Below, piece after piece: positions 1 to 24,248 of a stretch of DNA of 64,000 bases (positions are counted from its first letter, which is position 1; each line of letters starts with the position of its first letter). Below the pieces are notes generated by a model. That model worked only from the letters and a program-made list of their open reading frames with translations, made no database searches and was not told where the DNA came from. The stretch covers positions 44,918 to 108,917 of the forward strand of contig SCPZ01000109.1 of assembly GCA_004299305.1 (NCBI GenBank), given 5' to 3'. This DNA comes from Methylobacter sp. GTDB lineage: Bacteria > Pseudomonadota > Gammaproteobacteria > Methylococcales > Methylomonadaceae. Position numbers and translations under genes: made by a program.

Positions 1-1
1 T

Positions 2-682
2 CCGCAAGGCTATAAGGAAAATGACGAACCGAAACCCGGCGCTAATTTGGCCAACGGCTATGCGCAGAGTAAATGGGTCGCCGAAAAATTGGTGAGATCG
101 GCCAGGGACAGGGGCTTTCAAGTGACTGTTTATCGACCGGCTACCGTTGCCGGAGACAGCCGTAGCGGTAGTTGGAATACTGAAGACTTTCTGTGCCGGT
201 TGATCAAAGGCTGCATACAGATGGGCTATGCGCCTGTTGAATCGGTCCGCATGGATATGGCGCCCGTCAATTACATGAGCCGGGCTATTGTCTTGCTTTC
301 ATTGCTGCCGAGTTCTATCAGCGCTTGCTTCCATTTAAACCATCCCGCCCCGCCTTATTCCGATCAGCTGATCGATGGCTTTAGCCGGTCGGCTTATAGC
401 CTGGAGCGCATTCCTTATAAAGATTGGGTGAAAAAGGTGCTGGAGACCAATTGTCAGGACTTTGCGTTATTGCCTTTGCTGTCGATGTTTTCGGAGCAGA
501 ACCAGGATGATCAGATGGAGTTATTGGAAGAGGACGCTATCCGCTACGACTGTAGCGAAACGCAAGCGGTCTTGTCGAAGTTAGGCATTGAGTGCGCCTT
601 GTTGGAGGTTGAGTTATTGACACGCTATCAGGCCTATTTTAAGCGTAGCGGCTTTATTCTGGAGCCGGAACATTACCAATAG
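2..682 (+). CDS. C-terminal thioester reductase (R/TD) domain of an NRPS; 5'-partial, gene begins before the window
   Basis: Frame is open from nt 2. NGYAQSKWVAEKLV (YxxxK extended-SDR motif), YRPATVAGDS and DMAPVNY are typical of NRPS terminal reductases. An MbtH gene lies in the same cluster. Confidence 0.85.
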   Translation, partial: PQGYKENDEPKPGANLANGYAQSKWVAEKLVRSARDRGFQVTVYRPATVAGDSRSGSWNTEDFLCRLIKGCIQMGYAPVESVRMDMAPVNYMSRAIVLLSLLPSSISACFHLNHPAPPYSDQLIDGFSRSAYSLERIPYKDWVKKVLETNCQDFALLPLLSMFSEQNQDDQMELLEEDAIRYDCSETQAVLSKLGIECALLEVELLTRYQAYFKRSGFILEPEHYQ

Positions 683-846
683 AAATTATTTTAAACAAAA
701 TGATTTTTGCAGGTGGGGTGGATTTTAAGTTTGGTCGTCTACCTAAGGTAAATGTATTGATCGTACCTATAACAATACCTGCAAATATTGGGTTCTGTTG
801 TTAAAGAACCGGCTACGCGCAGGAAACTACTAAGGAAAATTCCAGA

Positions 847-3303
847 ATGGCTAATAAAAAGAAGAATTTTTTGCCGGGTGAAACGATGACTCATCCAGGA
901 AAAAAGCTCAGGGCTTGCTTTATAAAAGGAGTCTTTGTTTTAACGTTTTGTCACGCAGTACCGGCGCTATCGGAAGCGGACAAAGCTCAAAAGATTCAAT
1001 TTGATATGCCTTCCACTGATTTGGCTTCCGCATTGAATAGCTTTGCAGAGAAAACCGGAATGGAATTAAGTTATCCGGCCTCTATGGTAGTCAATGCAAA
1101 ATCCAAACCGCTTAAGGGTAGTTATGGCGTCCAGCAAGGCTTGCATGAACTATTGCAAGGAACCGGGTTGGCTTATCGCTTGACCGGGAATAATAGCGTA
1201 ACGCTGGAGAAGGTGGCCGTTGCTGAACCGCAATCGGGCAAAACTATGCCGTCGGTGACGGTCACGGGTAAAGCCGTCTCTGCCGACAGCGATCCTTACA
1301 ACACCGATTACAACCGCACCAATGCCACAACAGCCACCAAAACCAACACGTCGATCATGCAGACGCCGATGTCGGTGAAAGTGGTGCCTCAGCAGGTATT
1401 AAAGGATCAGCAGGTTGTAACCCTTGATCAGGCGTTGAAAAACGTCAGCGGTGTTATAAGTGGCTCAGGAACCGATAGGCAATTTTTTATCCGCGGCTTT
1501 GATGTTTATAACTATTATCGCGACGGTTTTCCGTTTGTTAGTAATTGGTATCATACCGAAGAGCTTGCTAATATCGAACGGGTAGAAGTTCTGAAAGGTC
1601 CGGGTTCGATTTTATACGGACGCGCCGAGCCGGGAGGCATTGTCAACTTCGTCACCAAACAGCCGCTGGACACGCCGTATTACAGCTTGCGCCAGCAATT
1701 CGGCTCTTATGACCATTATCGCACCGATATTGACGCCACCGGCCCGTTGACCGCGAATAAGGATCTCGCCTACCGCTTTAATCTGGCTTATCAAACCAAT
1801 AACTCTATTACCGAATTTGCGGGAGGAGAGCGGATATTTGTCGCACCGCAATTACGTTGGAATATTTCGGACAAAACCGTATCCAACATCAAGCTTGAAT
1901 ACAGCAATATCAAGAGAAACGCCGACAACCTGCTGCCATTGAATACAGCCGGTACGCAGCCGGCCGCGCTGCCCCGCAGTCAAAATCTTAGCGATCCCTG
2001 GAGCTATATGGAGGATGAATATGTGATGCTATCGCTGAATACCGAGCACAAATTTAATCCGAATTGGAGCCTGCGGCACCGCTTTAATGCAAGTTTTGCC
2101 AACGGGTCAGGTATAAACGTCAGTGCCAGCGGCAATGTAGCGGCCAACGGCGATGTCGGACGCTTTTTCTTTGAAGGAAACGCCAAAGGCAAGGATTATT
2201 TCAACAACTTTTATAACTCGCTGGAACTCACCGGCAAATTCGATACCGGCTTGTTCAAGCACACCATGCTGGTGGGTGGCGATTACATGAACACCGATGC
2301 CAGAGCGACAATGGGGCCGATTTTTGGCTTAAATCCTGCCGGCACCAATATCTATAATCCTGTTCATTTTGCCCAGGCGCCGACAGTTACCGCATACAAT
2401 ACTTTCGGCTATTCGCAGCCCTGGTTCGGCGTTTACGGTCAAGACCAGATCGAATTGCCTTATCATGTTCATTTGCTGGCAGGCTTACGTTATGACAATG
2501 CCGAAACCGGCGGCGATTCCGCTTGGGGTGCGTTCGGCAACAATACAAAAACCATCAACCCGACCGTCACGGACGATAAGGTTTCACCGCGCGGCGGATT
2601 GCTATGGCAGCCTATTCCTGAACTATCACTCTACGGTAGTTATACCGAAAACTTCGGCGCCTCAAATGGTAACAATTCCCAAGGAAATCGGCTTCCTGCC
2701 CAGACAGCCCAACAATGGGAAGTCGGCGCAAAAACAGAACTTTGGGGGAGTCGCTTTACCGGTACGCTCGCCTACTTTGACCTGACTAAACAAAATGTGC
2801 CTATGCAAGTCGCCCAAGGTATATCAAGAGCGGTCGGCGAAGCCGAAAGCCGAGGCATTGAACTGGATTTGACCGGCGAAATTTTGCCGGGATGGAAAGT
2901 GATTGGTGCGTATGCTTACACGCCTTTTGCCAAAACGCTTAAAGACAGCATTGGCGCTGGAACCGTAGGAATGAGGCTACACAATGCCCCGGTTAATAAC
3001 GGCAATCTGTGGACAACCTACGAGTTTCAAGACCGGACTTTGCATGGCTTGAAACTAGGGGCGGGTGTTCAAGCCGTTGGAATGCGCCAAATCGGTTATA
3101 CCGAAGCCATTAAAACACCTGGTTACGCCACGCTTAATTTAATGGCCAGCCAATCATGGAAAGTAGGCAAGACCAATGTCACGGCGCAGCTTAATGCCGA
3201 TAATTTGCTCGATAAGACCTATCATGGCGGCGTATACAGCTATGGCCCTGCTTTGTATGGAGCGCCGCGCACGTTTATGGGGTCGATTAAAATCGAATAT
3301 TGA
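847..3303 (+). CDS. TonB-dependent siderophore/metallophore receptor with N-terminal STN signalling domain (FecA/FpvA class); start may be 886
   Basis: Signal peptide, then STN (FDMPSTDLASALNSF...LLQGTGLAY), plug motif NIERVEVLKGPGSILYGRAEPGGIVN, C-terminal NLLDKTY...PRTFMGSIKIEY. Confidence 0.93.
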   Translation: MANKKKNFLPGETMTHPGKKLRACFIKGVFVLTFCHAVPALSEADKAQKIQFDMPSTDLASALNSFAEKTGMELSYPASMVVNAKSKPLKGSYGVQQGLHELLQGTGLAYRLTGNNSVTLEKVAVAEPQSGKTMPSVTVTGKAVSADSDPYNTDYNRTNATTATKTNTSIMQTPMSVKVVPQQVLKDQQVVTLDQALKNVSGVISGSGTDRQFFIRGFDVYNYYRDGFPFVSNWYHTEELANIERVEVLKGPGSILYGRAEPGGIVNFVTKQPLDTPYYSLRQQFGSYDHYRTDIDATGPLTANKDLAYRFNLAYQTNNSITEFAGGERIFVAPQLRWNISDKTVSNIKLEYSNIKRNADNLLPLNTAGTQPAALPRSQNLSDPWSYMEDEYVMLSLNTEHKFNPNWSLRHRFNASFANGSGINVSASGNVAANGDVGRFFFEGNAKGKDYFNNFYNSLELTGKFDTGLFKHTMLVGGDYMNTDARATMGPIFGLNPAGTNIYNPVHFAQAPTVTAYNTFGYSQPWFGVYGQDQIELPYHVHLLAGLRYDNAETGGDSAWGAFGNNTKTINPTVTDDKVSPRGGLLWQPIPELSLYGSYTENFGASNGNNSQGNRLPAQTAQQWEVGAKTELWGSRFTGTLAYFDLTKQNVPMQVAQGISRAVGEAESRGIELDLTGEILPGWKVIGAYAYTPFAKTLKDSIGAGTVGMRLHNAPVNNGNLWTTYEFQDRTLHGLKLGAGVQAVGMRQIGYTEAIKTPGYATLNLMASQSWKVGKTNVTAQLNADNLLDKTYHGGVYSYGPALYGAPRTFMGSIKIEY

Positions 3304-3320
3304 TGTCATACCTATTGTTA

Positions 3321-3342
3321 GGCTGCCGTTTTTTTGGCAGCC
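3321..3342 (+). terminator. Hairpin downstream of the receptor gene (terminator or mRNA-stabilising stem)
   Basis: GGCTGCC-N8-GGCAGCC inverted repeat 18 nt after the stop; no clear downstream U-tract. Confidence 0.4.
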
Positions 3343-3387
3343 CAATATTTCGGCAAACGACTCGACTATAAATTCTTAAGGGCTACG

Positions 3388-4572
3388 ATGGATCTAAGTC
3401 TAAAAAATCGCCGTAAAATCTGGCTCAAAGTGCATTTATATCTTGGCTTGTTTGCCGGAGCGATATTTGTATTGATTGGACTCACCGGCAGCTTGTTGGT
3501 TTTTGAAGACGCGATAGATGTCTGGTCAAACTCTAAACTGATGGTTGCGCCTGCGCCTGGCGGCAATAAAAGATTTCTGCCGCTGGATGAAATTGTTGCG
3601 TCGGGCATGAAAGCGCTGCCGAACAAGGCCAAGGCGCTTGATTTAGGCTTTCCCAGAGATTCGGAGCGGACTTTTGATTTGTGGTTTGAGCAGCCTTCAC
3701 CGAATGCGGATTATTTCGAAAGACACCAAATATTTATTAATCCTTATACGGCTGAAATTACCGGACAGCGGCTTTTAATCGATTTTCAACGTCCTTGGCG
3801 CGACCCCTTTATGGATTTTATTTTGCGCCTGCACTACAGCCTGGCTTTAGGATCGATAGGGATGAATATCGTAGGTTGGGTCGGTTTAGCATTATTTTTT
3901 ACGGTATTAACAGGGGTGATTTTATGGTGGCCTCGTTCAGGAAAGATCAGCAAGGCATTAACGATTAAACGCAATGCCAGTTCGGAACGGCTCAACTTCG
4001 ATTTACATAAAACATTCGGTTTTTATAGCGCAATTATTCTTGTTTTTTTGATTGCGTCAGGGGTATATCTGGTTTTTCCGAAATACGCGCGTGGCTTGGT
4101 CGGTATTTTTTCGCCTGTATCCCGCCCTTGGCCTGATTATCAAAGTGTCGTTCCAGTGGGTGATAAAACACCGCTAAGCCTAGTTGAAATTAAGCGTATT
4201 ACCGATGCGCGTTTTCCCGATGGCGAATATCGACGAATCGTTTTTCCGCAGAATGAGCGAGGAGTTTATGTTGTAAGTAAGCGGGCAATCGATGAGGTTA
4301 ATCAAAAAAAGGCTTATCGACGCCTTTGGATTGATCAATATAGCGGAAATATTCTTCATGTCCGTGAACATAGTACGCGTACAACCGGAGATATTATTGA
4401 GGAATGGCTTTTCCCGTTACACACAGGCGAGGCTTTCGGTATGACCGGACAGATAATAATTTTAAGTTTTGGGCTGACGCCATTGATACTTTATGTAACC
4501 GGGGTTATCCGGTGGTTACAGAAGAATAGAGCCGTTAATAGAAAGCAGGGTAAGTGCGAAGCAGGCGGTTGA
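3388..4572 (+). CDS. PepSY-associated TM-helix protein (FpvG/FoxB-like inner-membrane ferri-siderophore reductase)
   Basis: WLKVHLYLGL, LRLHYSLA, FDLHKTFGF and FPLHTGE (four TM His), two PepSY-like periplasmic loops, directly after the TBDR. ATG 3388 preferred over the ORF-track start 3334. Confidence 0.88.
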   Translation: MDLSLKNRRKIWLKVHLYLGLFAGAIFVLIGLTGSLLVFEDAIDVWSNSKLMVAPAPGGNKRFLPLDEIVASGMKALPNKAKALDLGFPRDSERTFDLWFEQPSPNADYFERHQIFINPYTAEITGQRLLIDFQRPWRDPFMDFILRLHYSLALGSIGMNIVGWVGLALFFTVLTGVILWWPRSGKISKALTIKRNASSERLNFDLHKTFGFYSAIILVFLIASGVYLVFPKYARGLVGIFSPVSRPWPDYQSVVPVGDKTPLSLVEIKRITDARFPDGEYRRIVFPQNERGVYVVSKRAIDEVNQKKAYRRLWIDQYSGNILHVREHSTRTTGDIIEEWLFPLHTGEAFGMTGQIIILSFGLTPLILYVTGVIRWLQKNRAVNRKQGKCEAGG

Positions 4573-4616
4573 AAGCATCTATATATAAAATAACCGGTTG
4601 TTCCGCTATCGATTCC

Positions 4617-4635: not shown

Positions 4636-4637
4636 CT

Positions 4638-5849
4638 ATGGAAAAAATAATGAATAAAACATCCCATGCGCCTGTGTTTATTTTATCGTGTGAACGATCA
4701 GGTTCTACGATGCTTAGATATATTATCGATACCCATTCTAAAGTAGCCTGCCCCAGTCATTTATATATGGGTAGTTTATGCGATAGCCTGAATCGTGCGG
4801 TAATGGGAACTATTGCACAGAATCAGGTTGAGCTGGATGAAGTAGCTAAGAAACAGTTTGCAGTAAGCGAAACAAGAAAAATTATTGATAATATAATGAA
4901 TAATTATATTGAGATAAAAAACAAACAAGTATGGTGCGAAAAAACGCCAATGAATTTGGAATATCTGTCTATATTGGATACCCATTTTCCTGATGCCAAA
5001 TATATTTGTCTGTATCGGAATTGCATGGATGTGGTTCACTCCAGTATTAACTTGAGTAAATACCGATTCCTTACCGAGCATATACCTTATGTACATAGAA
5101 ATCCTGAAAGCATTATTGCGGCGATGTTGGAGAATTGGTTGGAAAAAACCGATAGATTGCTGGATTTTGAATCGACTCATCAGGAACGTTGTTTTCGGGT
5201 GAAATATGAATCGATAGCCATGCAGCCTGAAGAAACGCTCGCCCCCTTATTCCGGTTTTTGGGGCTTGAATGGGAAAAAGACTTGATGGAACGTGTATTT
5301 GAGGTCAGCCATGATAAGGGAGAAGGCGACGGTAGAGCCGCATTATCCAGTAGGATTCGGCAAGACTCAGTCGGAAAAGGCATTGAAGTGCCACGGGCCG
5401 GAATCCCAAAGAAGTTTATAACAGAAATTGACAGCCTGCTTTGCAAGCTGGGTTATCCATGTCTGGATGATTATTATTCCAATAATTTTATTCGAAATGA
5501 AACAAATAAGGATGACCTGTTTAATGTATCGGATGTATTCGAAAACCGTTTTATGAATGCGATTAAAAAAAACCGATCTCGTTATCCTGCACTCAAGGGG
5601 ATATGGAAGATTATTGTCAAAGGTGATGAAGACGGGGTTTGGTTAATCGATTTATCCAATGAAGACGGCTTAATTAAAGAAGGCGATTTTAGAGCGGATT
5701 CCACACTTCGTTTATCTGCAGCTCTGCTGGCCGATATGGTAAATGGAACAAGAGATGCGATAGAGGCTTTTTCTCATGGAGAGATTGAAATGGATGGGGT
5801 TGATAATGAAGTATCGTTAATGAATTTAGGGCGATTGCTTTTTTCTTGA
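4638..5849 (+). CDS. Sulfotransferase fused to a C-terminal SCP2 (sterol/lipid carrier)-like domain
   Basis: 5'-PSB motif SCERSGSTMLRY, EKTP, and 3'-PB YRNCMDVVHS. C-terminal ~100 aa (GVWLIDLSN...ADSTLRLS...DMVNGTRDAIEAFSHGEIEMDG) follows the SCP2 pattern. Confidence 0.85.
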   Translation: MEKIMNKTSHAPVFILSCERSGSTMLRYIIDTHSKVACPSHLYMGSLCDSLNRAVMGTIAQNQVELDEVAKKQFAVSETRKIIDNIMNNYIEIKNKQVWCEKTPMNLEYLSILDTHFPDAKYICLYRNCMDVVHSSINLSKYRFLTEHIPYVHRNPESIIAAMLENWLEKTDRLLDFESTHQERCFRVKYESIAMQPEETLAPLFRFLGLEWEKDLMERVFEVSHDKGEGDGRAALSSRIRQDSVGKGIEVPRAGIPKKFITEIDSLLCKLGYPCLDDYYSNNFIRNETNKDDLFNVSDVFENRFMNAIKKNRSRYPALKGIWKIIVKGDEDGVWLIDLSNEDGLIKEGDFRADSTLRLSAALLADMVNGTRDAIEAFSHGEIEMDGVDNEVSLMNLGRLLFS

Positions 5850-5880: not shown

Positions 5881-7248
5881 ATGGCAAACATTGTTTTTTG
5901 TTTTCCTCCAATAGTGAGCACTATTAATTCAAGCTTACGATTGGCTAGAGAGTTAAAGTTGCGTGGTCATCAAATTACTTATTTAGGCATTGCCGATTGT
6001 AAACCCGTGATATGCGCCAATGGTTTTGAATTTGTGTCTATTTATGAAGAATGGTTTCCAAAAGGATGCTTTGGGAGTGCTTATATGAAATCACAACCTT
6101 CAACTGTGGATGATTATTCTGAAGACAGAAATAATTCGCTTAGGTTTAATAATTTTTTGGATTATTTAATTGCTGGCGGTGATGACGAATTAAATAGTGT
6201 AACTCGAGAATTAAATCCGGATTTGATTATTGTCTCAACCTCTTTATCTGATTCTGTTATTTGGGCTTTATTTTTCCATAAATTAAGATTAAAAGTTATA
6301 TATGTTTTTGATGTGTTGGGCGGATGTAATAATACAGTACCACCAATACATACAGAACTTATTTCAGATGGTTCGCTATGGTCTTCAGTAAAAACAATTT
6401 TGGCATGGCATATTCATAAAATAAAAAAAATTCGCCATGAAAGACATTTGGTTAGTAATGGGCTTGATTTAATATCATCAAAGAAGTTAAAAATGCTTTC
6501 CGAATATTGCGGCTATTCGATCAAAGACATCGATTTTTGGACGGATATGCCGGGTTTTCAATTGAAATTACCTGAATTGGTTCTTTTTCCAAAACGCTTT
6601 GATTTTCCAGGAGTAAAAAAGACAGGGCGATATTATGCCGAGGCTTCAATTGATTTAGATCGAGAGCAAGCTTCTTTTCCTTGGGAGAAAGTAATTGAAT
6701 CGCAACCTATCGTGTATGCGGCACTAGGCACCCTTCCGTTATTGGCTAAATCCGATTATGAAAATTTCTTTCGCATAGTGATAGACGCATCACTCAAGTG
6801 GCCTGCATGGAATTGGGTGCTCTCGATTGGTAATAATTTGACGGTGGATGATTTTGAGTCTGTTCCTGCTAATGTGATTATCGTCAATCGTGCTCCACAG
6901 CTGGAGTTGTTAAAAAAAGCATCATTAATGATTACTCACGGAGGGCCTAATTCCGTTAAGGAATGCATATTTTTTGGCGTTCCAATGATAGTTTTTCCGT
7001 TATGGTTTGATCAGCCCGGCAATGTGGCAAGAGTGACTTATCATGGCTTAGGTCTGAAAGGCGATTTTAAGACAATTACCGCCAAAGCATTACAGGATCT
7101 TATAGAAGAAGTGACTGTTAATCCTGAATTCAGGGAACGTACAAAAGCCATGCAAAAATATTTTATCGAAACTGAACAAGCTAAACCCAGCCTACAGTTA
7201 ATTGAAAGATTTATAAGTCAACCCAATATTCCGCCTTTTTTGAATTAA
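5881..7248 (+). CDS. Family-1 (GT-B) glycosyltransferase, MGT/UGT-like, copy 1
   Basis: ELKLRGHQITY N-terminus, YAALGT, and the PSPG-like box RAPQLELLKKASLMITHGGPNSVKECIFFGVPMIVFPLWFDQ. Confidence 0.92.
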   Translation: MANIVFCFPPIVSTINSSLRLARELKLRGHQITYLGIADCKPVICANGFEFVSIYEEWFPKGCFGSAYMKSQPSTVDDYSEDRNNSLRFNNFLDYLIAGGDDELNSVTRELNPDLIIVSTSLSDSVIWALFFHKLRLKVIYVFDVLGGCNNTVPPIHTELISDGSLWSSVKTILAWHIHKIKKIRHERHLVSNGLDLISSKKLKMLSEYCGYSIKDIDFWTDMPGFQLKLPELVLFPKRFDFPGVKKTGRYYAEASIDLDREQASFPWEKVIESQPIVYAALGTLPLLAKSDYENFFRIVIDASLKWPAWNWVLSIGNNLTVDDFESVPANVIIVNRAPQLELLKKASLMITHGGPNSVKECIFFGVPMIVFPLWFDQPGNVARVTYHGLGLKGDFKTITAKALQDLIEEVTVNPEFRERTKAMQKYFIETEQAKPSLQLIERFISQPNIPPFLN

Positions 7249-7369: not shown

Positions 7370-9370
7370 ATGCTGGTTTTAGGCTTAAATGGTGGTGGCG
7401 ATTCGGTATTTGATGCGTATTTCGGGCTATCTGAACATGCCTATCATGATACTGCGGCAGTATTGATGCAAGATGGTGTTGTTATTGCCGGAATCGAAGA
7501 AGAACGATTAATTCGTATTAAACACGCCAATAAAATATGGGTATTTGCAGTACAGTTTTGTTTGGAGAAAGCAAATAAAAAACTTGAAGATATAGATTAT
7601 ATTGCTGTCTACTCCAATGAAGATGCTTTAAATAAAGTATTAAAACAGCAGCAGCTAGGCAATCCCCTGTTCGCTGAAATTGGAGATGCGCATAAGTTTT
7701 TTAACTATTTGTTTCAGCGGGAATTTAATTATTGCTTAAAACATAACCAGCTGGTATTTGTTGACCACCATACTACTCATGCGGCAACGGCTTATTACAT
7801 GTCGGGTTTTAAGGATAGTTTGGTGTTGACCATAGACGGTCTCGGCGACGAAGTAGCGACCAAGGTGATTGATGTTCGCAACAAGCATTTTGACTGTTTA
7901 TTGAATAAACCGGCTGTTGATTCGTTAGGGCTTTTATATTGGGAAGTGATACGTTTTCTCGGCTATAGTCATTTCGATGAATATAAGGTAATGGGTTTGT
8001 CGCCTTACGGTTGTCGTGAAGCTTATAAAGAGCAATTTCAACGATTGTATACCTTATTGCCGGACGGCGATTATTCGTTACACCGGGATCGTGTAATTGA
8101 CTTATTTAATATACTGACTCCTCGGAAAAAGGATGCGCCGTTTACCCAAGTCCACATGGATATTGCGGCGGCATTGCAAGAAGCGCTAGAGACTATTGTT
8201 TTCCATATTCTGCGCCATTTTCAGCAAGCGACCGGTCACGCTCGTCTGGTAATCAGCGGGGGAGTGGGGCAAAACAGCAGCATGAATGGCAAGATTCTCT
8301 GTTCCGGTTTATTCGAGGATGTTTTTCTGCCGTCTTTTGCCGGTGATTCGGGCTGTGCTTATGGCGCAGCCGCTTATGTTTCTCACCAGATGCAGCCGAC
8401 GTTGTCTCTTGCGCGCGTTCCTCACGCTTATTGGGGAACGCCGATTCATGACGATGAAGTCGGCAGCGTTTTAGAGGCTTGGCGCGCATTTTTACATATC
8501 GAAAAAATGGATAACCGCTCGGAGCAAGTGGCCGACCTGATTATCGACGGCGCAGCGATCGGATGGGTGCAAGGTTGCTCCGAGTTCGGCCCTAGGGCTT
8601 TGGGTAATCGCAGTATCCTGGCCGATCCGCGTGTTGCCTCGCATAAGGAGACGATCAATGCGATGATTAAAATGCGCGAAGGTTACCGGCCGTTTGCGCC
8701 GTCGATATTGGAAGAGCGGGTGCGGGAGTTCTTCGAGGTGCCGGGAGATCATGCCGATTTCCCTTTCATGTCGTTCGTACTGAATGTTAAACCGGAACGG
8801 CGCGCACAATTGCCCGCCATCACCCACGTAGACGGCAGCGCCAGGCTGCAAACCGTAAGTAGGACTACTAATCTGCGCTATTGGGAGTTAATCAACGCTT
8901 TCGGCAGCAAAACCGGCATCCCGATTTTGCTGAATACCTCGTTCAATAACAATGCCGAGCCTATAGTCGACAGCATAGACGATGCCGTGGTGTGTTATTT
9001 GACCTCCGGGTTGGATTACCTGGTCGTGGGCGATTATTTGGCCAGTAAAACAGCCTGGCAGCCTGAGGACTTGGCCGACTTAATCGTCAGCTTGCCGAAA
9101 GCCGCAGTATTGCTAAGAGAAGATCGCTATGTCAGCCATAGTGAACGCGCTTTCAGTTATGCGTTGGTTTGGAATTACGATTCCGCACGACGCCATGCGT
9201 TGTCGGAAGTAGGCTACAAGATATTGCAGGCGGCCGACGGAGAACAGTCTGTAGGGCGGCTTATGCTTACTTTAGGTTTTTCAAAGGAACAGCAAGCACA
9301 GGTTCTGGAGGAATTGCCGGGATTGTGGTCGGATCGATTGCTGGTGTTGCGGCCAAAGCTGAGTTTGTAG
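7370..9370 (+). CDS. Carbamoyltransferase (NodU/CmcH/TobZ family) with ~110-aa C-terminal extension
   Basis: HDTAAVL, EEERLIRIKH, DHHTTHAATAYY, DGLGD, EYKVMGLSPYG, SGGVGQN, EFGPRALGNRSILADP, REGYRPFAPS, LNTSFN. Confidence 0.95.
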   Translation: MLVLGLNGGGDSVFDAYFGLSEHAYHDTAAVLMQDGVVIAGIEEERLIRIKHANKIWVFAVQFCLEKANKKLEDIDYIAVYSNEDALNKVLKQQQLGNPLFAEIGDAHKFFNYLFQREFNYCLKHNQLVFVDHHTTHAATAYYMSGFKDSLVLTIDGLGDEVATKVIDVRNKHFDCLLNKPAVDSLGLLYWEVIRFLGYSHFDEYKVMGLSPYGCREAYKEQFQRLYTLLPDGDYSLHRDRVIDLFNILTPRKKDAPFTQVHMDIAAALQEALETIVFHILRHFQQATGHARLVISGGVGQNSSMNGKILCSGLFEDVFLPSFAGDSGCAYGAAAYVSHQMQPTLSLARVPHAYWGTPIHDDEVGSVLEAWRAFLHIEKMDNRSEQVADLIIDGAAIGWVQGCSEFGPRALGNRSILADPRVASHKETINAMIKMREGYRPFAPSILEERVREFFEVPGDHADFPFMSFVLNVKPERRAQLPAITHVDGSARLQTVSRTTNLRYWELINAFGSKTGIPILLNTSFNNNAEPIVDSIDDAVVCYLTSGLDYLVVGDYLASKTAWQPEDLADLIVSLPKAAVLLREDRYVSHSERAFSYALVWNYDSARRHALSEVGYKILQAADGEQSVGRLMLTLGFSKEQQAQVLEELPGLWSDRLLVLRPKLSL

Positions 9371-9566
9371 AGTTGTCACAAAAGAGGCTGTTTAATTTTG
9401 ATCAATAGTCATCGGTCGCCGAATAATTTTCGAAAAAAATGAGTGATGTGAAATGTTGAAAATAGCCGATGCCGGATGGCGCACCGGTAGGCTCGGCAAT
9501 GCTTTTGCACCCGCTATAGAGATACCGTTTATTGTTGGAAATGCAGCTCGCCTCACAGCGTCACTA

Positions 9567-10577: not shown

Positions 10578-10581
10578 CCGG

Positions 10582-14951: not shown

Positions 14952-15074
14952 GAATGAGGCACGAAATAACTTAGGCAAGTTGCCAATAGTCGGAGTGCAG
15001 GCTTCGCCTGCGTGCGCAAGCAAAGCTTGCACTCCTGCCGCATACAGTTGTCCACTTTATTTCATGCTCGTTCC
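14951..15074. mobile_element. MITE shell type F1 (GGAATG.GCACGAAATAACTT ends), 124 bp
   Basis: TTA duplicated at 14948-50 and 15075-77 around GG...CC. Near-complete reverse-complement copy at 48461-48605. Left end overlaps the tolC stop. Confidence 0.85.
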
Positions 15075-15077
15075 TTA

Positions 15078-17171: not shown

Positions 17172-17390
17172 CTATTGCGATGCCGTTTGTTGCATATGTA
17201 TCTGTAAGCTTAGCGGACGCATATCGGTCCAGGCTTCTTTGATGTAATCCAAACATTCCTGTTTGTTGCCGGTTTTGCCGACCGTTCGCCAGCCGCCCGG
17301 TATTTCTTTGTATTCCGGCCAAATTGAATATTGTTCTTCGTGATTGACCACAACTTGGTAAATAGTCGTATCTTCGTCGTCCCAAGCCAT
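17172..17390 (-). CDS. mbtH: MbtH-like NRPS accessory protein
   Basis: [15 protein letters not shown]...IPGGW...[17 protein letters not shown] signature; GGAG RBS before ATG 17390. Confidence 0.97.
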
Positions 17391-17488
17391 TGTTTTTCTC
17401 CGTTGATAGGTAATTGTTGTAAATAACCATGCCATTTATTGCGATGGCTTGGTTTCCGTAGAGTAGACGATAGAAGCGCTAGAATACC

Positions 17489-17992
17489 TCACAGGTCCAA
17501 TCGTTGGTTTTTGAAATGCTTACGGCAGTGCAGCAGCGCTTTGGCTATATGTTTTTCAACGGAGCTGTCGGATATGCCGAGTTCCTTGGCGGTTTCGGTA
17601 TAGGTCATGCCGTAAACTCTATTCAGGACAAATATTTCTCGGGTGCGCAACGGCAACTCCTCAAGTATCAGGGTAATGGCGGCTAACCTTTCATTGACGG
17701 ATGCAAGTTTTTCGGCAGAGGGAAATTCGCTTGGCGGGGGGAGGGTTTGTTCTTTGGTTTGCTGGTAATTTTCCGTTACTTTTCGATGCTTGATGTGGTC
17801 GTAAGCGAGGTTTTTAGCAATTCGGAACAGAAAGCCGCGCGGATGATCGATAGTTTGTTTTTGCGCTTCACGGAAAAAAATAATGAAGCTTTCTTGAGCG
17901 ATGTCGGCGGCTATATCAGGGCAGTCGACAATCCGAGTCAAATGAAACTGCAACTCAGACCGGTGATTTAAATAAATGGCTTCTATGTTCAA
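17489..17992 (-). CDS. ECF sigma factor, FecI/PvdS/FpvI (iron-starvation) class
   Basis: AADIAQESF, FLFRIAKNLAYDH, LEELPLRTREIFVLNRVYGMTYTETAKELGIS..VEKHIAKAL. Confidence 0.92.
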   Translation of the reverse strand: MNIEAIYLNHRSELQFHLTRIVDCPDIAADIAQESFIIFFREAQKQTIDHPRGFLFRIAKNLAYDHIKHRKVTENYQQTKEQTLPPPSEFPSAEKLASVNERLAAITLILEELPLRTREIFVLNRVYGMTYTETAKELGISDSSVEKHIAKALLHCRKHFKNQRLDL

Positions 17993-18905
17993 GATTAAAT
18001 CCCTCTTTTATTATTGTTAGGAATATTTATTTTGCTGTTCCGGCGGCATCTGAATAAGGGCGCTATGGCTTCCCGTGCTTGGGCTTTCAAGCCTATCCGT
18101 TAAGCGTGTAGCGAATCCAGTCTACATGGAGGTCATGGACCGACATCCACGGAACTGGATATCCGTTTCCCGGTCGGCATGACGGGTTACTTGGATATTT
18201 GTGAAAGATCAGGGCTTGAGCTTGGAAATTAGCGAGCATATGTGAGTCCATATTTCTTATTTACCCCGCTCCTGTACGATGCGTAGGGTATTGAATAAGC
18301 CGAGTCTGCACGGCAAGTTAAGTTGCCGTCCAATATGTCGTTATGTTTGTTGTCGATGCTTAAAGGCATGTGTTTGGTATGGAAGTCTATTTGAGATGCT
18401 CTGTTACTTTGCACTCGGCGATGCGGTGATTGATACATTACTCTGGCTGCTTTTATTTTGTAAAGCAATGAATATGCCAGATTTTTGTTATAGTGATTTC
18501 AATTGTTTGTCTATAAGTGCAGGATATGAATTTGAAAGAAGCGGCATATAACGTATTTACAATGCGTTATATAACATAGTTTTTTAAGCGAGGCGCGGAC
18601 GTCGCTACTGCGAACGGTGTGATTACGGGGGGAAGCAAGTTTAAGGCTGGGCGATTTTACAGATAATATCCTTCAATCCCAGCGTAGATTGCTTGCCTGA
18701 TTAGCGCATAAGGGATACGGATTTTTTTCATGAACCTGGCAATCGGGGTCATATTAGGCAGTATTTTTGGCGGAGCGGATGAGGTTAAAACGGCCTTAAA
18801 GCGTCCTATTATTGGGCCTGATTTGGCTTTGAGGCCTGATATGCGGCATAGGTTTTGTTCTAACGCATTGAATTGTGTATCCGCGAGCTTAAAGGAAAAT
18901 ATTTT

Positions 18906-20531
18906 ATGTTAGTTTTTTTGTGCCGCTCTTCCTGGCTAACGATAGTCGGCGTACTGCTTACCGGCATTATCAGCGGATTATGCAGTGCCGCTTTGGTGGC
19001 GGTAATTAATTCGACATTGTCGAATACCTTAGATGTCAGGCTTTTACCGTGGTTGTTTGTCGGCCTGTCTGTTGCGGTATTGTTCAGCGGTTTTTTATCG
19101 CATTATCTGCTCAACAGGCTCAGCGCTAAAATTGTCTGTGATCTTCGTATTCAAATCAGCCGATTAATACTCGCCGCACCCTATCCTTATCTGCAAAAAC
19201 TCGGCAAGTCGGCATTATTGACTAACCTGACCGAGGACATCACTGCGATTGCCAATGCCAGTCAATTATTGCCGATAGTTTGCATTAATTTTGCGGTCGT
19301 AGCAGGCAGTATGGCCTATCTGAGCTGGCTATCCTGGCAGTTGGCCCTGGTTTTGGCCGGAGTGATTGTATTCGGAGTCTTGAGCTCCAGTTTATTCAGG
19401 GAGTGGCCGAAAAAAGCCGTACTCAAGGCGCGGGAGGAATACGATGTGCTCAGCGGCGATTTTCGGGCCTTGACGGAAGGCGTCCGAGAGCTGAAATTAC
19501 ACAAGCAGCGTAGCGATGCGTTTATGGCGCAGTCGCTGGCGGCCAGCGCCGAAGCCTATCGCCGATACTCTTTTCGGGGAGCGGTGAGTTATTTGCTGGT
19601 TAATCAATGGGCGCAGCTTCTGTATTACTTGGCCATAGGTGTGATCCTCTATGTTTTTCCGGTTTGGCAGGTTATCGATCAGAAGGTGATCGGCGGTTAT
19701 ACCTTGGTATTTTTGTTTATGATGTCGCCGTTAACCATACTCACTAACAGTTTGCCGGTGTTTAGCCGTGCCAATGTGTCGTTGCAAAAAGTCCGGCAGC
19801 TCGGCGATCAGCTCAATAGCCGGATTGTACCGGCTGATACAGCCGATACATCGGAGGCTTGCGCGGGCTTTTCCGGGTTGTCGCTACAAGGCGTGACGCA
19901 TAGTTTTCATCGGGAAAAGGAAAATCGTAATTTTACCTTGGGGCCTGTCGACCTGGACTTTAAGTCCGGGGAACTGGTGTTTTTGATCGGCGGCAACGGC
20001 AGCGGCAAGACTACGTTGGCAATGTTGCTGATAGGGCTCTATATGCCCGAGCAAGGGATTATTCGTTGGAATGGAAAGATCGTCGACAACGCTAACAGGG
20101 ATGATTATTTACAAAACTTCTCGGTGATTTTTTCGGATTTTTATTTATTCGACGAGCTGTATGGGGTCGATAATGGGAATATCCTGGTCGCCGATTATTT
20201 GCAACGCTTGCACTTACATCATAAGGTGCAGGTTGAGAATGGCCGGTTTTCCTCGGTGAATTTGTCGCAAGGCCAGCGTAAACGTCTGGCGCTGTTGGTC
20301 GCTTATCTGGAAGATCGGCCTTTTTACGTTTTCGACGAATGGGCGGCGGATCAAGATCCCGAATTCAAACACTTATTCTATACGGAGCTGTTGCCGGCCT
20401 TAAAAAAACGCGGCAAAACAGTGTTGATTATCAGTCATGACGATCGCTATTTCTATTTGGCGGATCGCTGTATCAAGCTGGAAGAAGGCCGGATTATAGC
20501 CATCGAAAAGCCGGTAGCAGTCGGCAATTAG
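18906..20531 (+). CDS. Cyclic-peptide export ABC transporter (PvdE/SyrD/YojI family)
   Basis: 6-TM domain fused to an NBD; GGNGSGKTT, LSQGQRKRLALL, VFDEWAADQDPEFK, ISHDD. Confidence 0.95.
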   Translation: MLVFLCRSSWLTIVGVLLTGIISGLCSAALVAVINSTLSNTLDVRLLPWLFVGLSVAVLFSGFLSHYLLNRLSAKIVCDLRIQISRLILAAPYPYLQKLGKSALLTNLTEDITAIANASQLLPIVCINFAVVAGSMAYLSWLSWQLALVLAGVIVFGVLSSSLFREWPKKAVLKAREEYDVLSGDFRALTEGVRELKLHKQRSDAFMAQSLAASAEAYRRYSFRGAVSYLLVNQWAQLLYYLAIGVILYVFPVWQVIDQKVIGGYTLVFLFMMSPLTILTNSLPVFSRANVSLQKVRQLGDQLNSRIVPADTADTSEACAGFSGLSLQGVTHSFHREKENRNFTLGPVDLDFKSGELVFLIGGNGSGKTTLAMLLIGLYMPEQGIIRWNGKIVDNANRDDYLQNFSVIFSDFYLFDELYGVDNGNILVADYLQRLHLHHKVQVENGRFSSVNLSQGQRKRLALLVAYLEDRPFYVFDEWAADQDPEFKHLFYTELLPALKKRGKTVLIISHDDRYFYLADRCIKLEEGRIIAIEKPVAVGN

Positions 20532-20717: not shown

Positions 20718-23135
20718 ATGGCAAGAGTGAATATTCGAAAAATTATCATATATAGCGGCTTGGGCTTGGTGAGTGTGGCGGCTGTCGCTATCGGCGGCGG
20801 TTTTTGGGTCTTGCATGGGGCTATGCCGCAACTCGACGGCACGGTGAAACTGGATCGGCTGACGGCGGAGGTTCGCGTATATACTGATGCACACGGTATC
20901 CCGGTCATCAATGCCGCTAACCGTATTGATGCGGTTCGGGCATTGGGTTATGTCACCGCCCGCGACCGTTTGTTCCAGATGGAGTTAATGCGGCGCAGAA
21001 GTGCAGGGCGTTTGTCGGAAATCTTCGGCGCTTTGGCCTTGGACAGCGACATCAAAGCCCGAACCTACGGATTTCACCGGGAGACAAAAGCGATACTGGC
21101 AAAACTGCCGTCGACGCATCTGCATTACCTGCAAAGCTACGCCGACGGCATCAACAGTTATATGGCGGAATCCGGCAAACTGCCTTTCGAGTTTACGGTG
21201 CTGGGTTATCAACCGGAGCCTTGGACAATCGAGGACAGTCTGCTGGTTGTATTAGGCATGTGCGAGAATTTGACTGCCGGTGAGGAAAGCGGCGAGCGCA
21301 TGTTGACGGTGATGGAAAAAACCTTGCCGGATGCGGCCATGCGTTTTTTAACGCCGGATACCGATTTTTATACCGAACAGCTGCAAAAGCAGGCCGAATC
21401 GTTGCGTCCCGCACAAGCGATTCCTGTCGAAGCGTTGGCAAGCGCATTGGGCCGACAACCGGCGGATAAGACATTGTCGGCCCAGTTGGTTCAGCAGTCC
21501 GATTTAATGCTCGGCTCCAATGCCTGGGCGGTCAGCGGTAAGCTTACCGGGGATGGCCGGGCTATTCTGGCTAACGATATGCATTTGGGTATATCGGTGC
21601 CCAATATTTGGTATCGCATCGAACTGAATTACGGCGATACACATGCCGCAGGCGTGACCTTGCCCGGTACGCCTTTATTAATTGTCGGCAGCAACCGCCA
21701 TATCGCCTGGGGAACAACCAATCTTACCGGCGATTTCCTGGATTTGGTCAAGCTTGACATTAATCCTGCCGATCCCGGTCAATACCGGGTAGGCGATCAA
21801 TGGCAGCGCTTCGACGAGTATCCTGAAACTATTCTTGTCAAAGGCGGCGGCGCCAAACAGATCATGGTCAAACAGACCCGCTGGGGACCGGTTGCAAGTC
21901 AGCCGTTGCTGGACCAGCCGGTAGCCATTCACTGGGTGGCGCTGGATGCCGATGCGATGAACCTCAATTTATTTGATTTGGAGCAAGGCGAAACCCTGGA
22001 ACAAGCGGTAAAGATAGTCAACAGCGGCGGCGGTCCGCAGTTGAATATTTTATTGGCTGACGACCAAGGCCATATCGCCTGGACCTTGATGGGCAAAATC
22101 CCCAAGCGCTTCGGCAATGACGGCTTGACCAGCCGCTCCTGGGCGGATGGCAGTGTGGGCTGGAATGGTTATGTCGAACCCGAGAATTTGCCTCGGGTTA
22201 TCGATCCTCCCGAAGGCTTTTTGGCATCGGCCAATGACCGGCGCGTGGGCAAAAATTATCCATATATCATCGGCCACCAATTCGGTAACGGTTACCGAGC
22301 CTATAGGATTACCCAACAGCTTAAACAAATGTCCAAGATTGGCGAACAGGCCATGCTCTATCTGCAACTTGATACCGAAAGCGAGTTCTATGGCTTTTAT
22401 CAGCAGTTGGCTTTAAATAGCCTGAGCGCCGAAGCGATTGCGTTGCAACCGGAGTTGGCCGAGGCGCGCGACTATCTGTTGGCCTGGGATGGCCGGGCCG
22501 ATGTCGACAGTCTGGGTTTTGCCTTGCTGGTTGAGTTTCGTAAGCAATTGGCCGAGGCGGTATTTGCGCCGTTTTTATCGGCCAGTCGGCAGGCCGATAA
22601 AAATTTCAGCTACTCATGGACTTATATCGATACGCCGTTGCAAGCCCTGCTGAACGAAAAGTTGCCGCACACATTGCCCGATGCGGCGCATTATCGAAAT
22701 TGGAACGATTTTATTCGGGGGCAATTGAAACTCAGTATACAGAAGCTGCAAGCTCAACATCCAGGGATGGCATTAATGGAATTGACCTGGGGCAAGCAGA
22801 ATATAATCAAGCATATGCATCCATTTTCCAGGGCATTGCCGATACTGAGCGATTTGCTTGATATGCCGGGCGAGGCATTGCCGGGCTGCGCTTTTTGCGT
22901 TCGTGCGGCGGGACCCGTGTTCGGGGCCAGCGAACGGCTGGTTGTCTCGCCGGGGCATTTTGAAGACGCTATTCTACACATGCCCGGCGGCCAATCCGGT
23001 CAGCCCTTGTCGCCTTATTACCGGGATCAGCAGAACTATTGGTTAAAGGGCTTACCGATACCATTGACGGCTGGAAAGTCTGAGCATACCTTGTTGTTAC
23101 AGCCGCATAAGGTACAAAATCCTGGCGGAATATAA
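20718..23135 (+). CDS. Ntn-hydrolase acylase (penicillin acylase/PvdQ-like, peptidase S45)
   Basis: N-terminal anchor, DAHGIPVI, ARDRLFQM, autocleavage motif GSNAWAVSG..LANDMHL, HMPGGQSGQPLSPYYRDQ. Confidence 0.92.
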   Translation: MARVNIRKIIIYSGLGLVSVAAVAIGGGFWVLHGAMPQLDGTVKLDRLTAEVRVYTDAHGIPVINAANRIDAVRALGYVTARDRLFQMELMRRRSAGRLSEIFGALALDSDIKARTYGFHRETKAILAKLPSTHLHYLQSYADGINSYMAESGKLPFEFTVLGYQPEPWTIEDSLLVVLGMCENLTAGEESGERMLTVMEKTLPDAAMRFLTPDTDFYTEQLQKQAESLRPAQAIPVEALASALGRQPADKTLSAQLVQQSDLMLGSNAWAVSGKLTGDGRAILANDMHLGISVPNIWYRIELNYGDTHAAGVTLPGTPLLIVGSNRHIAWGTTNLTGDFLDLVKLDINPADPGQYRVGDQWQRFDEYPETILVKGGGAKQIMVKQTRWGPVASQPLLDQPVAIHWVALDADAMNLNLFDLEQGETLEQAVKIVNSGGGPQLNILLADDQGHIAWTLMGKIPKRFGNDGLTSRSWADGSVGWNGYVEPENLPRVIDPPEGFLASANDRRVGKNYPYIIGHQFGNGYRAYRITQQLKQMSKIGEQAMLYLQLDTESEFYGFYQQLALNSLSAEAIALQPELAEARDYLLAWDGRADVDSLGFALLVEFRKQLAEAVFAPFLSASRQADKNFSYSWTYIDTPLQALLNEKLPHTLPDAAHYRNWNDFIRGQLKLSIQKLQAQHPGMALMELTWGKQNIIKHMHPFSRALPILSDLLDMPGEALPGCAFCVRAAGPVFGASERLVVSPGHFEDAILHMPGGQSGQPLSPYYRDQQNYWLKGLPIPLTAGKSEHTLLLQPHKVQNPGGI

Positions 23136-23267
23136 TAAACGGCAGGTTTTAAGCAGAATAGACATTATGGAACGTAACGCTTCAGTGATTTCAACGGCTC
23201 GGCGCTTTTGTTGCAGATTGTTTTCGGGCCACGGGGAGCTTTCCATGCATAAACCGAGTAGTTACTT

Positions 23268-24248
23268 ATGAAACAAGAAAACCAGAAGAACAGTTTGGAA
23301 TCCGGACTTGACAACGATATTGACGAGCAAGCGGCGGCTTGGTTTATAAGGCTGCGGGCCGACAATGTCTCCGGCGAGGAAAAGGGGGCATTTCTTCGAT
23401 GGTTGAACCAGGATGACGCGCATAGAGATACCTTTAATGAAATCAGCAAATTGTGGGGCGATGCCGATTTGCTGCAAGCGCTAGTTGAAACCGGACAAAA
23501 ACATCGCATAGCACCCTGTAAAAAAACAACAGCCGTTAATAAATTTAAACTGCCGCTGGCAATGGCGGCTGGTTTGGCTTTAGCTTTGCTGTTTCAGGGC
23601 GAATTGGCGATTTTGATGCAAAGCGATTATTCGACCAGGATAGGCGAACGAAAAACCGTTTATTTCGATGACGGTTCAACGGCGATGCTCAATACCGACA
23701 GTTCCATTGCCGTCAGCATGGATGGCCCTCAACGCAGGGTCGAACTGCTGAAGGGCGAGGCTTACTTCGAGGTTAAACCCGATCCCAATCGGCCGTTTAT
23801 TGTTCAAGCCGGACATTCGGCGACCCGCGTACTGGGCACACGGTTTTTCGTGCATGAAAAGAGCGATAGCGATGAAGTTAAAGTCGTATCAGGCCGCGTT
23901 GAAGTGGGCAATCGGCACAGCTTGGAGCCGCCATTGATTTTGCATGATCGCGAAGCTGTATCGGTCGATGCCGAAGGGCTGGGCGAAACCCGGTTACTGG
24001 ATTCGGCGCTGACCACATCCTGGGTGAACGGTTTTTTGGTGTTTGAGAATGCGTCCCTGGAGAGCGTTATTAGCCAGATCCGCCGCTACAGGCGTGGTAT
24101 GGTGGTCTACAAGGACAATACTTTACGTAAACTCGAAATCAATGGCCGCATCAATTTGCGCGAATCGGACGACATGCTGAAAGTATTGGGCAAAAACCTG
24201 TCGGTAAGAATGACCTATCTGAGCGACTGGTTGGTGATTGTCGGGTGA
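23268..24248 (+). CDS. FecR-family anti-sigma/transmembrane signal transducer
   Basis: EQAAAWFIRL..FLRWL, a TM segment, STRIGERKTVYFDDGS..LNTDS, GEAYFEV, VLGTRF. Confidence 0.93.
   Translation: MKQENQKNSLESGLDNDIDEQAAAWFIRLRADNVSGEEKGAFLRWLNQDDAHRDTFNEISKLWGDADLLQALVETGQKHRIAPCKKTTAVNKFKLPLAMAAGLALALLFQGELAILMQSDYSTRIGERKTVYFDDGSTAMLNTDSSIAVSMDGPQRRVELLKGEAYFEVKPDPNRPFIVQAGHSATRVLGTRFFVHEKSDSDEVKVVSGRVEVGNRHSLEPPLILHDREAVSVDAEGLGETRLLDSALTTSWVNGFLVFENASLESVISQIRRYRRGMVVYKDNTLRKLEINGRINLRESDDMLKVLGKNLSVRMTYLSDWLVIVG

Follow-up and report, generated by a model that had tools for sequence, protein, structure and literature searches.

A putative non-ribosomal peptide metallophore cluster with pyoverdine-like handling genes in Methylobacter and other methanotrophs

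The stretch of DNA analyzed here (64,000 nt, hereafter the window) corresponds to positions 44918–108917 of contig C130 in the 4.49-Mb draft genome of a member of the genus Methylobacter, a genome that also encodes pmoA. The window opens within a non-ribosomal peptide synthetase (NRPS) gene that is followed by genes for metal uptake, signaling, tailoring, and export, and it probably carries the right-hand two thirds of an approximately 49-kb cluster for the biosynthesis, export, and uptake of a secreted peptide metallophore (table 1). A first-pass annotation, made from the letters of the window alone, had proposed such a product with a pyoverdine-like life cycle, and Pfam and NCBIfam searches recovered every gene on its list, intact and where it had been placed. 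The limits of the cluster are different from those it suggested. It expected approximately 50–80 kb of NRPS genes upstream, whereas the core spans only 20.4 kb and five genes: four NRPS genes, together with an ankyrin-repeat gene, lie at C130:24352–41040 (3.9–20.6 kb before the start of the window), and the fifth NRPS gene starts at C130:41037 outside the window and ends inside it. All five are intact and directly upstream, which removes the possibility, raised in the same annotation, that they might be missing or broken. On the left the cluster borders on the housekeeping genes infB, truB, and pnp, followed by a DUF6748 gene, an IS66 fragment, and the ankyrin-repeat gene; on the right it does not end at 24248 with the FecR gene, as had been assumed, but continues to a conserved pump composed of a membrane fusion protein (MFP) and an ABC ATPase.

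The first four NRPS proteins have lengths of 1767, 1123, 1132, and 1146 aa and are free of frameshifts, and the fifth has 1520 aa. Together they are laid out as a fatty acyl-AMP ligase (FAAL) and an acyl carrier protein (ACP) followed by a condensation-adenylation-thiolation (C-A-T) module, three further C-A-T modules, and a last C-A-T module that ends in a reductase (R) domain, and the sequence LGGHSL is present in every T domain. The N-terminus of the first protein, ahead of an ACP and a starter-type C domain, has FAAL enzymes as its best structural matches (7r7e, SafB, and FadD23/32/28). At the opposite end of the line, the full-length fifth protein matches NAD_binding_4 with 243.5 bits and contains TGATGFLG and YAQSK after the T domain, the GxxGxxG NAD(P)H motif and YxxxK pair of a releasing thioester reductase. 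The first-pass annotation had called for the specificities of the A domains, and the codes of all five modules could be read at the Stachelhaus positions, anchored on GrsA, the sequence of which was checked against 1AMU. Modules 1, 2, and 5 share the code DSAAIAEVWK (9/10 identical to the His code DSALIAEVWK), module 3 has DFWQVGMVHK (9/10 to the Thr code DFWSVGMVHK), and module 4 has DVWFISLVDK (8/10 to the Ser code DVWHLSLVDK), giving His-His-Thr-Ser-His. In a 2025 survey DSALIAEVWK is assigned to His and β-OH-His, DFWSVGMVHK and DFWNIGMVHK to Thr, and DVWHLSLVDK to Ser (PMC12283262).

The C domain of module 4 has a weak Pfam score, and its nearest structures are the C domains of McyB and PvdL. 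It contains HHLLEAGGD at residue 112 and HHLVCDH at residue 231 and is the only C domain of the line with a dual epimerization/condensation (E/C) motif, for which work on arthrofactin reportedly established the combination of an HHxxxD active site with an N-terminal HH[I/L]xxxxGD motif. Because of this motif the Thr is probably epimerized. The same domain was considered as a heterocyclization (Cy) domain, an assignment ruled out by the presence of HHxxxD instead of DxxxxD in addition to the dual E/C motif. The line is thus predicted to make N-acyl-L-His-L-His-D-(allo)Thr-L-Ser-L-His, which would leave it as an aldehyde or alcohol.

The genes next to the assembly line encode uptake, signaling, and export functions. 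The TonB-dependent receptor scores 346 bits against TIGR01783 (cutoff 223.5) and 33 bits against the STN model (cutoff 28.4), and its closest structures are FoxA, FetA, and FpvA; the two matches together with the adjacent genes for FecR and an extracytoplasmic function (ECF) sigma factor identify it as a siderophore receptor with cell-surface signaling. The adjacent PepSY_TM protein has His residues within its predicted transmembrane helices. The ABC exporter scores 476.8 bits against TIGR01194 (cutoff 286.2) and therefore belongs to the cyclic-peptide exporter class. The N-terminal nucleophile (Ntn) hydrolase has an N-terminal membrane anchor, a G|SNAW processing site that supplies the nucleophile, and a score of 556 bits against the penicillin-amidase family; it was likened to PvdQ in the first-pass annotation but is not an orthologue, reaching 63.4 bits in NF051460 against a cutoff of 950 bits, and only the family membership holds. 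MbtH is 82–91% identical in relatives, and the block encoding the resistance-nodulation-division (RND) pump is 85–92% identical in three other Methylobacter genomes (G006, G002, and G028), with remnants in Methylobacter tundripaludum SV96. In relatives, the DevBA/MacAB-type pump directly follows the FecR gene; here an ORF for a HigB-like toxin (Pfam PF05015) is located between them at 24694–25429, a position in which relatives have nothing.

The tailoring genes lie among those for uptake and export. The sulfotransferase starts at 4638 rather than 4554, as judged by its homologues, and its nearest structures are the sulfotransferases of CurM and olefin synthase and TPST. Its 5'-PSB (RSGST) and 3'-PB motifs are invariant in 11 homologues, and its C-terminus is a true SCP2 domain; fusions of SCP2 to tailoring dioxygenases were described in pyoverdine loci in an earlier comparative study (PMC2938197). 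The enzyme could place sulfate on the hydroxyl of Ser or Thr, on the terminal alcohol, or on a sugar. The two family 1 glycosyltransferases (GT1a and GT1b) are 76% identical overall and approximately 97% identical in the C-terminal, donor-binding half, and the orthologue of GT1a in M. tundripaludum SV96 is 80–81% identical. Because these enzymes are MGT/YjiC/OleD-like, both probably use UDP-hexose. We infer that the sulfotransferase, the glycosyltransferases, and the carbamoyltransferase all act on one molecule.

Table 1. Features of the putative metallophore cluster (window positions unless a contig position is given)
Feature	Position	Strand	Basis or remark
ECF-type promoter motif before the ankyrin gene leading into NRPS1	C130:24256		
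Terminal thioester reductase, 3' end of the fifth NRPS gene	2..682	+	NAD_binding_4, motifs
ECF-type promoter motif GGGGT-N16-CGTCTA before the receptor operon	715..741	+	motif scan, conservation
TonB-dependent receptor with STN, Plug, and barrel	847..3303	+	TIGR01783
PepSY_TM membrane reductase, FoxB/FpvG-like	3334..4572	+	Pfam, match to FoxB
PAPS-type sulfotransferase with C-terminal SCP2 lipid-binding domain, class I	4638..5849	+	profile, structure matches
GT1 glycosyltransferase a, MGT/YjiC/OleD-like	5881..7248	+	Pfam/NCBIfam
NodU/TobZ-type carbamoyltransferase	7370..9370	+	Pfam/NCBIfam
Tripartite efflux pump: MFP 9453-10577, RND 10582-13620, outer-membrane factor ~13617-14951	9453..14951	+	Pfam
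GT1 glycosyltransferase b	15439..16809	+	paralogue of GT1a
MbtH-like protein	17172..17435	-	likely start is the second Met, at 17390
ECF-type promoter motif before mbtH	17464..17490	-	motif scan, conservation
FecI-type ECF sigma factor	17489..17992	-	Pfam/NCBIfam
ECF-type promoter motif before the ABC-acylase-FecR operon	18781..18807	+	alignment, motif scan
Cyclic-peptide-type ABC exporter, PvdE/SyrD class	18873..20531	+	TIGR01194
Penicillin-amidase-family Ntn hydrolase, predicted periplasmic deacylase	20718..23135	+	Pfam, anchor, processing site
FecR-type anti-sigma factor/transducer	23268..24248	+	FecR, DUF4880, FecR_C
Second pump, DevBA/MacAB type: MFP 25579-26724, ABC ATPase 26721-27380	25579..27380	+	Pfam
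Two FtsX-type permeases	60572..62978	-	comparison with M. tundripaludum OWC-G53F

When the intergenic regions between the sigma factor and ABC exporter genes of 12 relatives were aligned, the element GAGGT-N16-CGTC stood out as conserved in front of the exporter gene. The motif G[AG]GG[TA]-N15-17-CGTC[CT][AT] has 30 matches in the 4.49 Mb of the genome, and four of them are located inside the cluster, in a span of 46 kb where 0.3 would be expected (Poisson p ~3e-4). All four copies are correctly oriented and lie approximately 55–135 nt upstream of the first gene in a unit, the units being the ankyrin and NRPS genes; the receptor-PepSY-sulfotransferase-GT-carbamoyltransferase-RND genes; mbtH; and the ABC-acylase-FecR genes. 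Three tailoring genes (sulfotransferase, GT1a, and carbamoyltransferase) and the RND pump genes lie inside the receptor operon, in which gaps do not exceed 122 nt. The copy in front of the receptor gene is kept in six relatives (G006, L058, L048, L051, L042, and SV96), it also stands in front of the corresponding genes of further Methylobacter genomes, Methylomonas rivi, and Methylovulum, and in G029 it is found before NRPS1. Because the motif stands before all four units, the genes for uptake, tailoring, export, and synthesis are predicted to form one regulon.

The first gene behind the leftmost of these promoters is the ankyrin-repeat gene (C130:24352–24894), which also precedes NRPS1 in SV96. 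FIH-like hydroxylases, the class to which the Cupin_8 proteins encoded in the clusters of relatives belong, hydroxylate ankyrin repeats; the occurrence of an ankyrin gene by NRPS1 alongside these Cupin_8 proteins may be a coincidence. The cluster is also peppered with miniature inverted-repeat transposable elements (MITEs), and the same palindromic element (AGGAATGAG...GGAGTGCAGGCTTCGC...GCAAGC...TGCACTCC) is present at C130:25000–25060 upstream of NRPS1 and at window positions 14951–15080, past the gene for the outer-membrane factor.

A profile of the sulfotransferase-SCP2 fusion matched 49 loci among 185,579 species genomes and 266 proteins in a large protein collection. In a host-range scan with patterns drawn from Methylobacter sequences, the named hosts are Methylobacter, Methylomicrobium agile, M. 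lacus, Methylotuvimicrobium buryatense, Methylomonas rivi, Methylovulum, Methylogaea oryzae, and Methylocapsa aurea; further matches are one protein from a Burkholderiales metagenome-assembled genome (MAG; 52% identical) and an unclassified gammaproteobacterial MAG (33%). The methanotroph set keeps the gene order NRPS, receptor, PepSY, tailoring, mbtH, sigma factor, ABC exporter, acylase, FecR, MFP, and ABC ATPase, and synteny of the reductase-terminated NRPS, receptor, PepSY, sulfotransferase, MbtH, ECF, ABC, acylase, and FecR genes spans six genera. The receptors are only 35–60% identical, versus 80–92% for the ABC exporter, acylase, sigma factor, FecR, MbtH, and RND proteins, and such a divergent receptor beside conserved logistics genes is the pattern of pyoverdine loci. 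A-domain codes predict acyl-His-His-Asp-Ser-His-R for M. agile, acyl-His-His-Thr-Ser-X-His-R for G006, His-Ser-His-His-R for G029, Ser-Dab?-His-R for Methylogaea (Dab, diaminobutyrate), and His-His-Ser-Ser-Ser-His-Ser-TE for SV96, R and TE denoting release by a reductase and a thioesterase. Peptides rich in His and Ser are therefore recurrent in the family, with reductive release as the common state and thioesterase release as the exception.

The interval between the PepSY and mbtH genes is hypervariable across the family, drawing on a pool that comprises two classes of sulfotransferase-SCP2, two other sulfotransferase types, Cupin_8, a methyltransferase, a phosphopantetheinyl transferase, one or two GT1s, a carbamoyltransferase, and the RND pump. 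The sulfotransferase-SCP2 fusion is present in most members examined and absent from G006, whose locus carries two GT1 genes, a carbamoyltransferase gene, and the RND genes, and the GT/carbamoyltransferase/RND block is an accessory feature common to G006, G002, G028, and, as deletion remnants, SV96. A rule tying the sulfotransferase to reductive release was ruled out by SV96-type clusters, which release by thioesterase and keep a class II sulfotransferase. The copy in M. buryatense 5G (L040, NZ_KB455575.1:721178–742374) looks degenerate: the hits to the last NRPS and to Cupin_8 are fragmented, and a search of the genome at E <= 1e-50 yielded no FAAL module. A literature search found no paper describing this cluster family and no described product, in agreement with the first-pass statement that no known siderophore combines these features.

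In pyoverdine biogenesis an acylated precursor is made in the cytoplasm, exported by an ABC transporter, deacylated in the periplasm, expelled by an efflux pump, re-imported with STN signaling, and relieved of its metal by reduction in the periplasm. Because this handling is established, we propose the following order of steps for the product of the present cluster. The FAAL and ACP would start the five-module NRPS, which would release an N-acyl pentapeptide as a C-terminal aldehyde or alcohol. The still-lipidated peptide would be O-sulfated in the cytoplasm, with the SCP2 domain holding the acyl tail; sulfation is placed before export because the sulfate donor 3'-phosphoadenosine-5'-phosphosulfate (PAPS) is cytoplasmic. 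One or two sugars would further be attached from UDP-hexose and a carbamoyl group added, probably to a sugar. After export through the ABC transporter, the modified lipopeptide would lose its acyl chain to the membrane-anchored Ntn hydrolase in the periplasm, a step that would free the N-terminal amine, and would leave the cell through either the RND system or the pump of the DevBA/MacAB type. The calculated mass of the bare deacylated core is 603.288 Da, and the calculated [M+H]+ of the fully decorated form is 1051.363 for the alcohol and 1049.348 for the aldehyde. The metal complex would re-enter via the STN receptor, which would signal through FecR to the ECF sigma factor in a positive feedback, and the PepSY_TM haem reductase would free the metal by reduction.

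The pyoverdine-like life cycle advanced in the first-pass annotation is thus supported gene by gene, yet the likeness is functional, and tests of membership in the pyoverdine system itself failed. The Pseudomonas system (PvdL, PvdE, PvdQ, PvdRT-OpmQ, FpvA/FpvR/PvdS-FpvI, and FpvG) shares with this cluster a FAAL-primed NRPS and acylated precursor, a cyclic-peptide-class ABC exporter, a periplasmic Ntn deacylase, a tripartite pump, the path from an STN receptor via a FecR-type protein to an ECF sigma factor, a PepSY_TM reductase, and a hypervariable NRPS/receptor/tailoring region beside conserved logistics genes. In contrast, the codes here specify His, His, Thr, Ser, and His in place of a Glu-Tyr-Dab (L-Glu, D-Tyr, L-Dab) chromophore module, the ORFs of the cluster include neither PvdA/PvdF or other chelator genes nor PvdP/O/N/M-type maturation genes, release is by reductase instead of thioesterase, the acylase scores far under the PvdQ equivalog threshold, and sulfation, glycosylation, and carbamoylation are added.

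Other known systems resemble the cluster in part. The diisonitrile lipopeptide chalkophores (mycobacterial nrp operon, SF2768), proposed for copper acquisition (PMC9600254, PMC13500777), are likewise FAAL-initiated NRPS lipopeptides with reductive release, whereas the peptide predicted here is longer and His-rich and the uptake genes are of the Gram-negative TonB/FecIR/PepSY kind; no dioxygenase ORF that could be the Fe/2-oxoglutarate (2OG)-dependent isonitrile synthase of a diisonitrile pathway was found in the cluster. Methanobactin, the ribosomally made and posttranslationally modified chalkophore of alphaproteobacterial methanotrophs, has in common the host guild and TonB-dependent uptake with FecIR-type regulation, but it is produced by MbnABC with oxazolone/thioamide ligands, whereas the present product would be non-ribosomal with imidazole ligands, and the cluster contains no methanobactin operon (MbnA with MbnB/MbnC). 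Methylocystabactin of Methylocystis/Methylosinus is also an NRPS metallophore of methanotrophs; it differs in being a triscatecholate built from dihydroxybenzoate (DHB) that lacks an acyl tail, sulfate, sugar, and reductase (PMC12435222). The closest matches for the sulfotransferase and carbamoyltransferase are CurM/olefin-synthase sulfotransferases and NodU/NoeE-type Nod-factor enzymes, which likewise act on lipid-linked substrates; unlike in CurM/olefin synthase, the sulfotransferase here is a stand-alone enzyme with SCP2, and either a sulfate kept on the product or one serving as a leaving group is conceivable.

Two genes of the PF05114 family (DUF692, MbnB/ChrH family) are encoded elsewhere in the genome in bufferin-type operons (C131:1129–3304 and C116:12011–16020), each with a Cys-rich signal-peptide precursor and a putative DUF2063-type (BufC-like) partner identified by eye; a predicted membrane protein encoded behind the C116 operon could be DoxX-like. 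The products of these operons are probably copper-stress peptides.

Several observations weigh against the reading of the locus as a metallophore cluster with one coordinated set of genes. No gene for a recognized chelating group is present anywhere in the cluster: Pfam searches of all ORFs from C130:22395 to window position 28598 found no catechol, hydroxamate, or hydroxy-acid genes (a genome-wide search was not made), the catechol, hydroxamate, β-hydroxy-Asp/His, salicylate, and diazeniumdiolate genes by which NRPS metallophores are recognized were not found within the cluster, and a β-hydroxylase or other chelator gene sought between pnp and NRPS1 was not found among the DUF6748 gene, IS66 fragment, and ankyrin gene of that interval. 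Nor does this genome encode any homologue of the Cupin_8 hydroxylase that occurs in relatives. The A-domain calls depend on 8–9/10 code matches and are predictions. A MITE intervenes between the ankyrin gene and NRPS1, so that read-through from the ECF promoter is an assumption and not guaranteed. A canonical Fur box was not found in the cluster or in the 12 orthologous sigma/ABC intergenic regions, where no score exceeded the shuffled expectation, with a consensus that is uncalibrated for this host because its best matches in the genome are mostly intragenic. The DevBA/MacAB-type pump is split by an approximately 35-kb rearrangement, as if 27.4–63.0 kb had been inverted: its two FtsX permeases share 90% identity with the pair in M. 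tundripaludum OWC-G53F, where they follow the ABC ATPase gene, whereas here they are approximately 33 kb away and inverted, and no inverted repeats of at least 40 nt were found at the breakpoints. Finally, because of their GC content of 36–39% (36–37% for the GTs) versus 48% for the genome, the sulfotransferase and GT1 genes appear to be recent arrivals, with a substrate deduced from position only.

The last of these observations bears on the idea that the GT1/carbamoyltransferase/RND block came into the cluster as a mobile module for detoxification or resistance, built from a macrolide-type glycosyltransferase and efflux, and leaves the peptide unmodified. The GTs belong to the macrolide-GT subfamily, the composition is mosaic (56–57% GC in the RND genes), and close carbamoyltransferase homologues are also found outside the cluster in M. 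tundripaludum OWC-G53F (G032) and G018. Against this, the block occupies the same spot in the ECF-promoted receptor operon of at least five Methylobacter genomes (this one, G006, G002, G028, and, as remnants, SV96), the M. agile cluster has the carbamoyltransferase without GT or RND genes, and G006 independently carries two GTs, all of which make a passenger module improbable. We consider it very unlikely that the NRPS makes a surfactant, antibiotic, or signal and that the receptor, FecR, sigma factor, and PepSY genes belong to an unrelated neighboring uptake system: distant acidobacterial loci do combine a FAAL-NRPS, sulfotransferase-SCP2, and ABC exporter without a receptor gene in the stretches examined, but the promoter motif is common to the biosynthetic, export, and uptake operons, synteny is kept across six genera, and the receptor diversifies along with peptide composition.

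For the metallophore reading, the nature of the metal depends on the ligands and on the reductase. Because there are no chelator genes and the available donors would be three imidazoles and the amine unmasked by the acylase, the predicted ligand set favors Cu(II), Ni, or Zn over Fe(III); the reductive release step leaves only iron or copper as a fit, and we regard these two as about equally likely. An ordinary Fe(III) siderophore is a plausible option, though short of probable, in which iron is bound by non-obvious groups such as a His hydroxylated by an enzyme encoded elsewhere and Fur acts via the ECF sigma factor as in pyoverdine. Regulation by FecI/FecR is classically associated with iron. 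The receptor scores above the cutoff of the siderophore-receptor model and has FoxA, FetA, and FpvA as structural kin, the PepSY_TM protein matches the ferrisiderophore reductase FoxB, several relatives encode a Cupin_8 (JmjC/FIH-like) hydroxylase that could make β-hydroxy-His, and the His code is reported to accept that residue. Iron is less readily reconciled with the absence of any Cupin_8 homologue from this genome, with the lack of TauD/SyrP-type, hydroxamate, and catechol genes in the cluster, with the established poor affinity of imidazole and amine donors for Fe(III), and, as a weak point given the uncalibrated consensus, with the absence of a Fur box above chance in the sigma/ABC intergenic region of the 12 relatives. 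A chalkophore of methanotrophs that lack methanobactin, in which deacylation unmasks an N-terminal His-His or X-X-His site for Cu(II) and the PepSY_TM protein is a cupric reductase, can be held only tentatively. It is consistent with the His-rich peptides of all resolved members (after deacylation H-H-T-S-H, H-H-D-S-H, H-S-H-H, S-Dab-H, and H-H-S-S-S-H-S), with the named hosts of the His-type version, which almost all belong to methanotroph genera including the alphaproteobacterium Methylocapsa aurea, with pmoA in the genome, and with the confinement of the genome's MbnB-family genes to bufferin-type rather than methanobactin operons. A PepSY_TM protein was also recently proposed as a periplasmic copper (cupric) reductase (PMC13038864). 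Yet the basis of the copper option is entirely ligand chemistry and host range, the latter from a scan whose patterns came from Methylobacter; no copper gene (copCD, mopE/corA, or pmo) is linked to the cluster; and Cu(II) sites of the amino-terminal Cu(II)- and Ni(II)-binding (ATCUN) type are hard to reduce. The more specific proposal that the whole family is an NRPS-made copper carrier, exported as a lipidated and sulfated pro-form, given its Cu(II) site by the acylase, imported as the cupric complex, and relieved of copper by reduction for particulate methane monooxygenase (pMMO), is rather doubtful. A lanthanide reading was also considered and found no supporting feature in the cluster; the sole lead is an unrelated-looking NRPS cluster of M. 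capsulatus that responds to cerium (PMC10728633).

In lakes, wetlands, and tundra, methane is oxidized predominantly by gammaproteobacterial methanotrophs, which rely on copper and iron enzymes but whose secreted metal carriers are, to our knowledge, essentially unknown. The present analysis defines a widespread family and predicts its peptides, which constitute a candidate new chemical class of imidazole-based, O-sulfated metallophores with combinatorial sugar, carbamoyl, methyl, and hydroxyl decoration and would exemplify a pro-chelator that is armed only after export. If the metal is copper, the family would answer how Methylobacter, Methylomicrobium, and Methylomonas scavenge it. M. agile ATCC 35068 and M. 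tundripaludum SV96 are culturable carriers of the cluster.

In Acidobacteriota, the fusion of sulfotransferase and SCP2 points to a wider, unexplored set of putative clusters for sulfated lipopeptides. This distant version, which includes Pyrinomonadaceae (L043–L047, L050, L055, L060, L061, L070, and L080), combines the ABC exporter, sulfotransferase-SCP2, and FAAL-NRPS with homoserine-like and basic-residue A-domain codes, no TonB receptor being present within the stretches examined, and may represent a sulfated lipopeptide family of Acidobacteriota from soil. The Methylobacter genome itself contains two other large NRPS(-PKS) loci, at C75:1756–24450 and C60:26268–35624.

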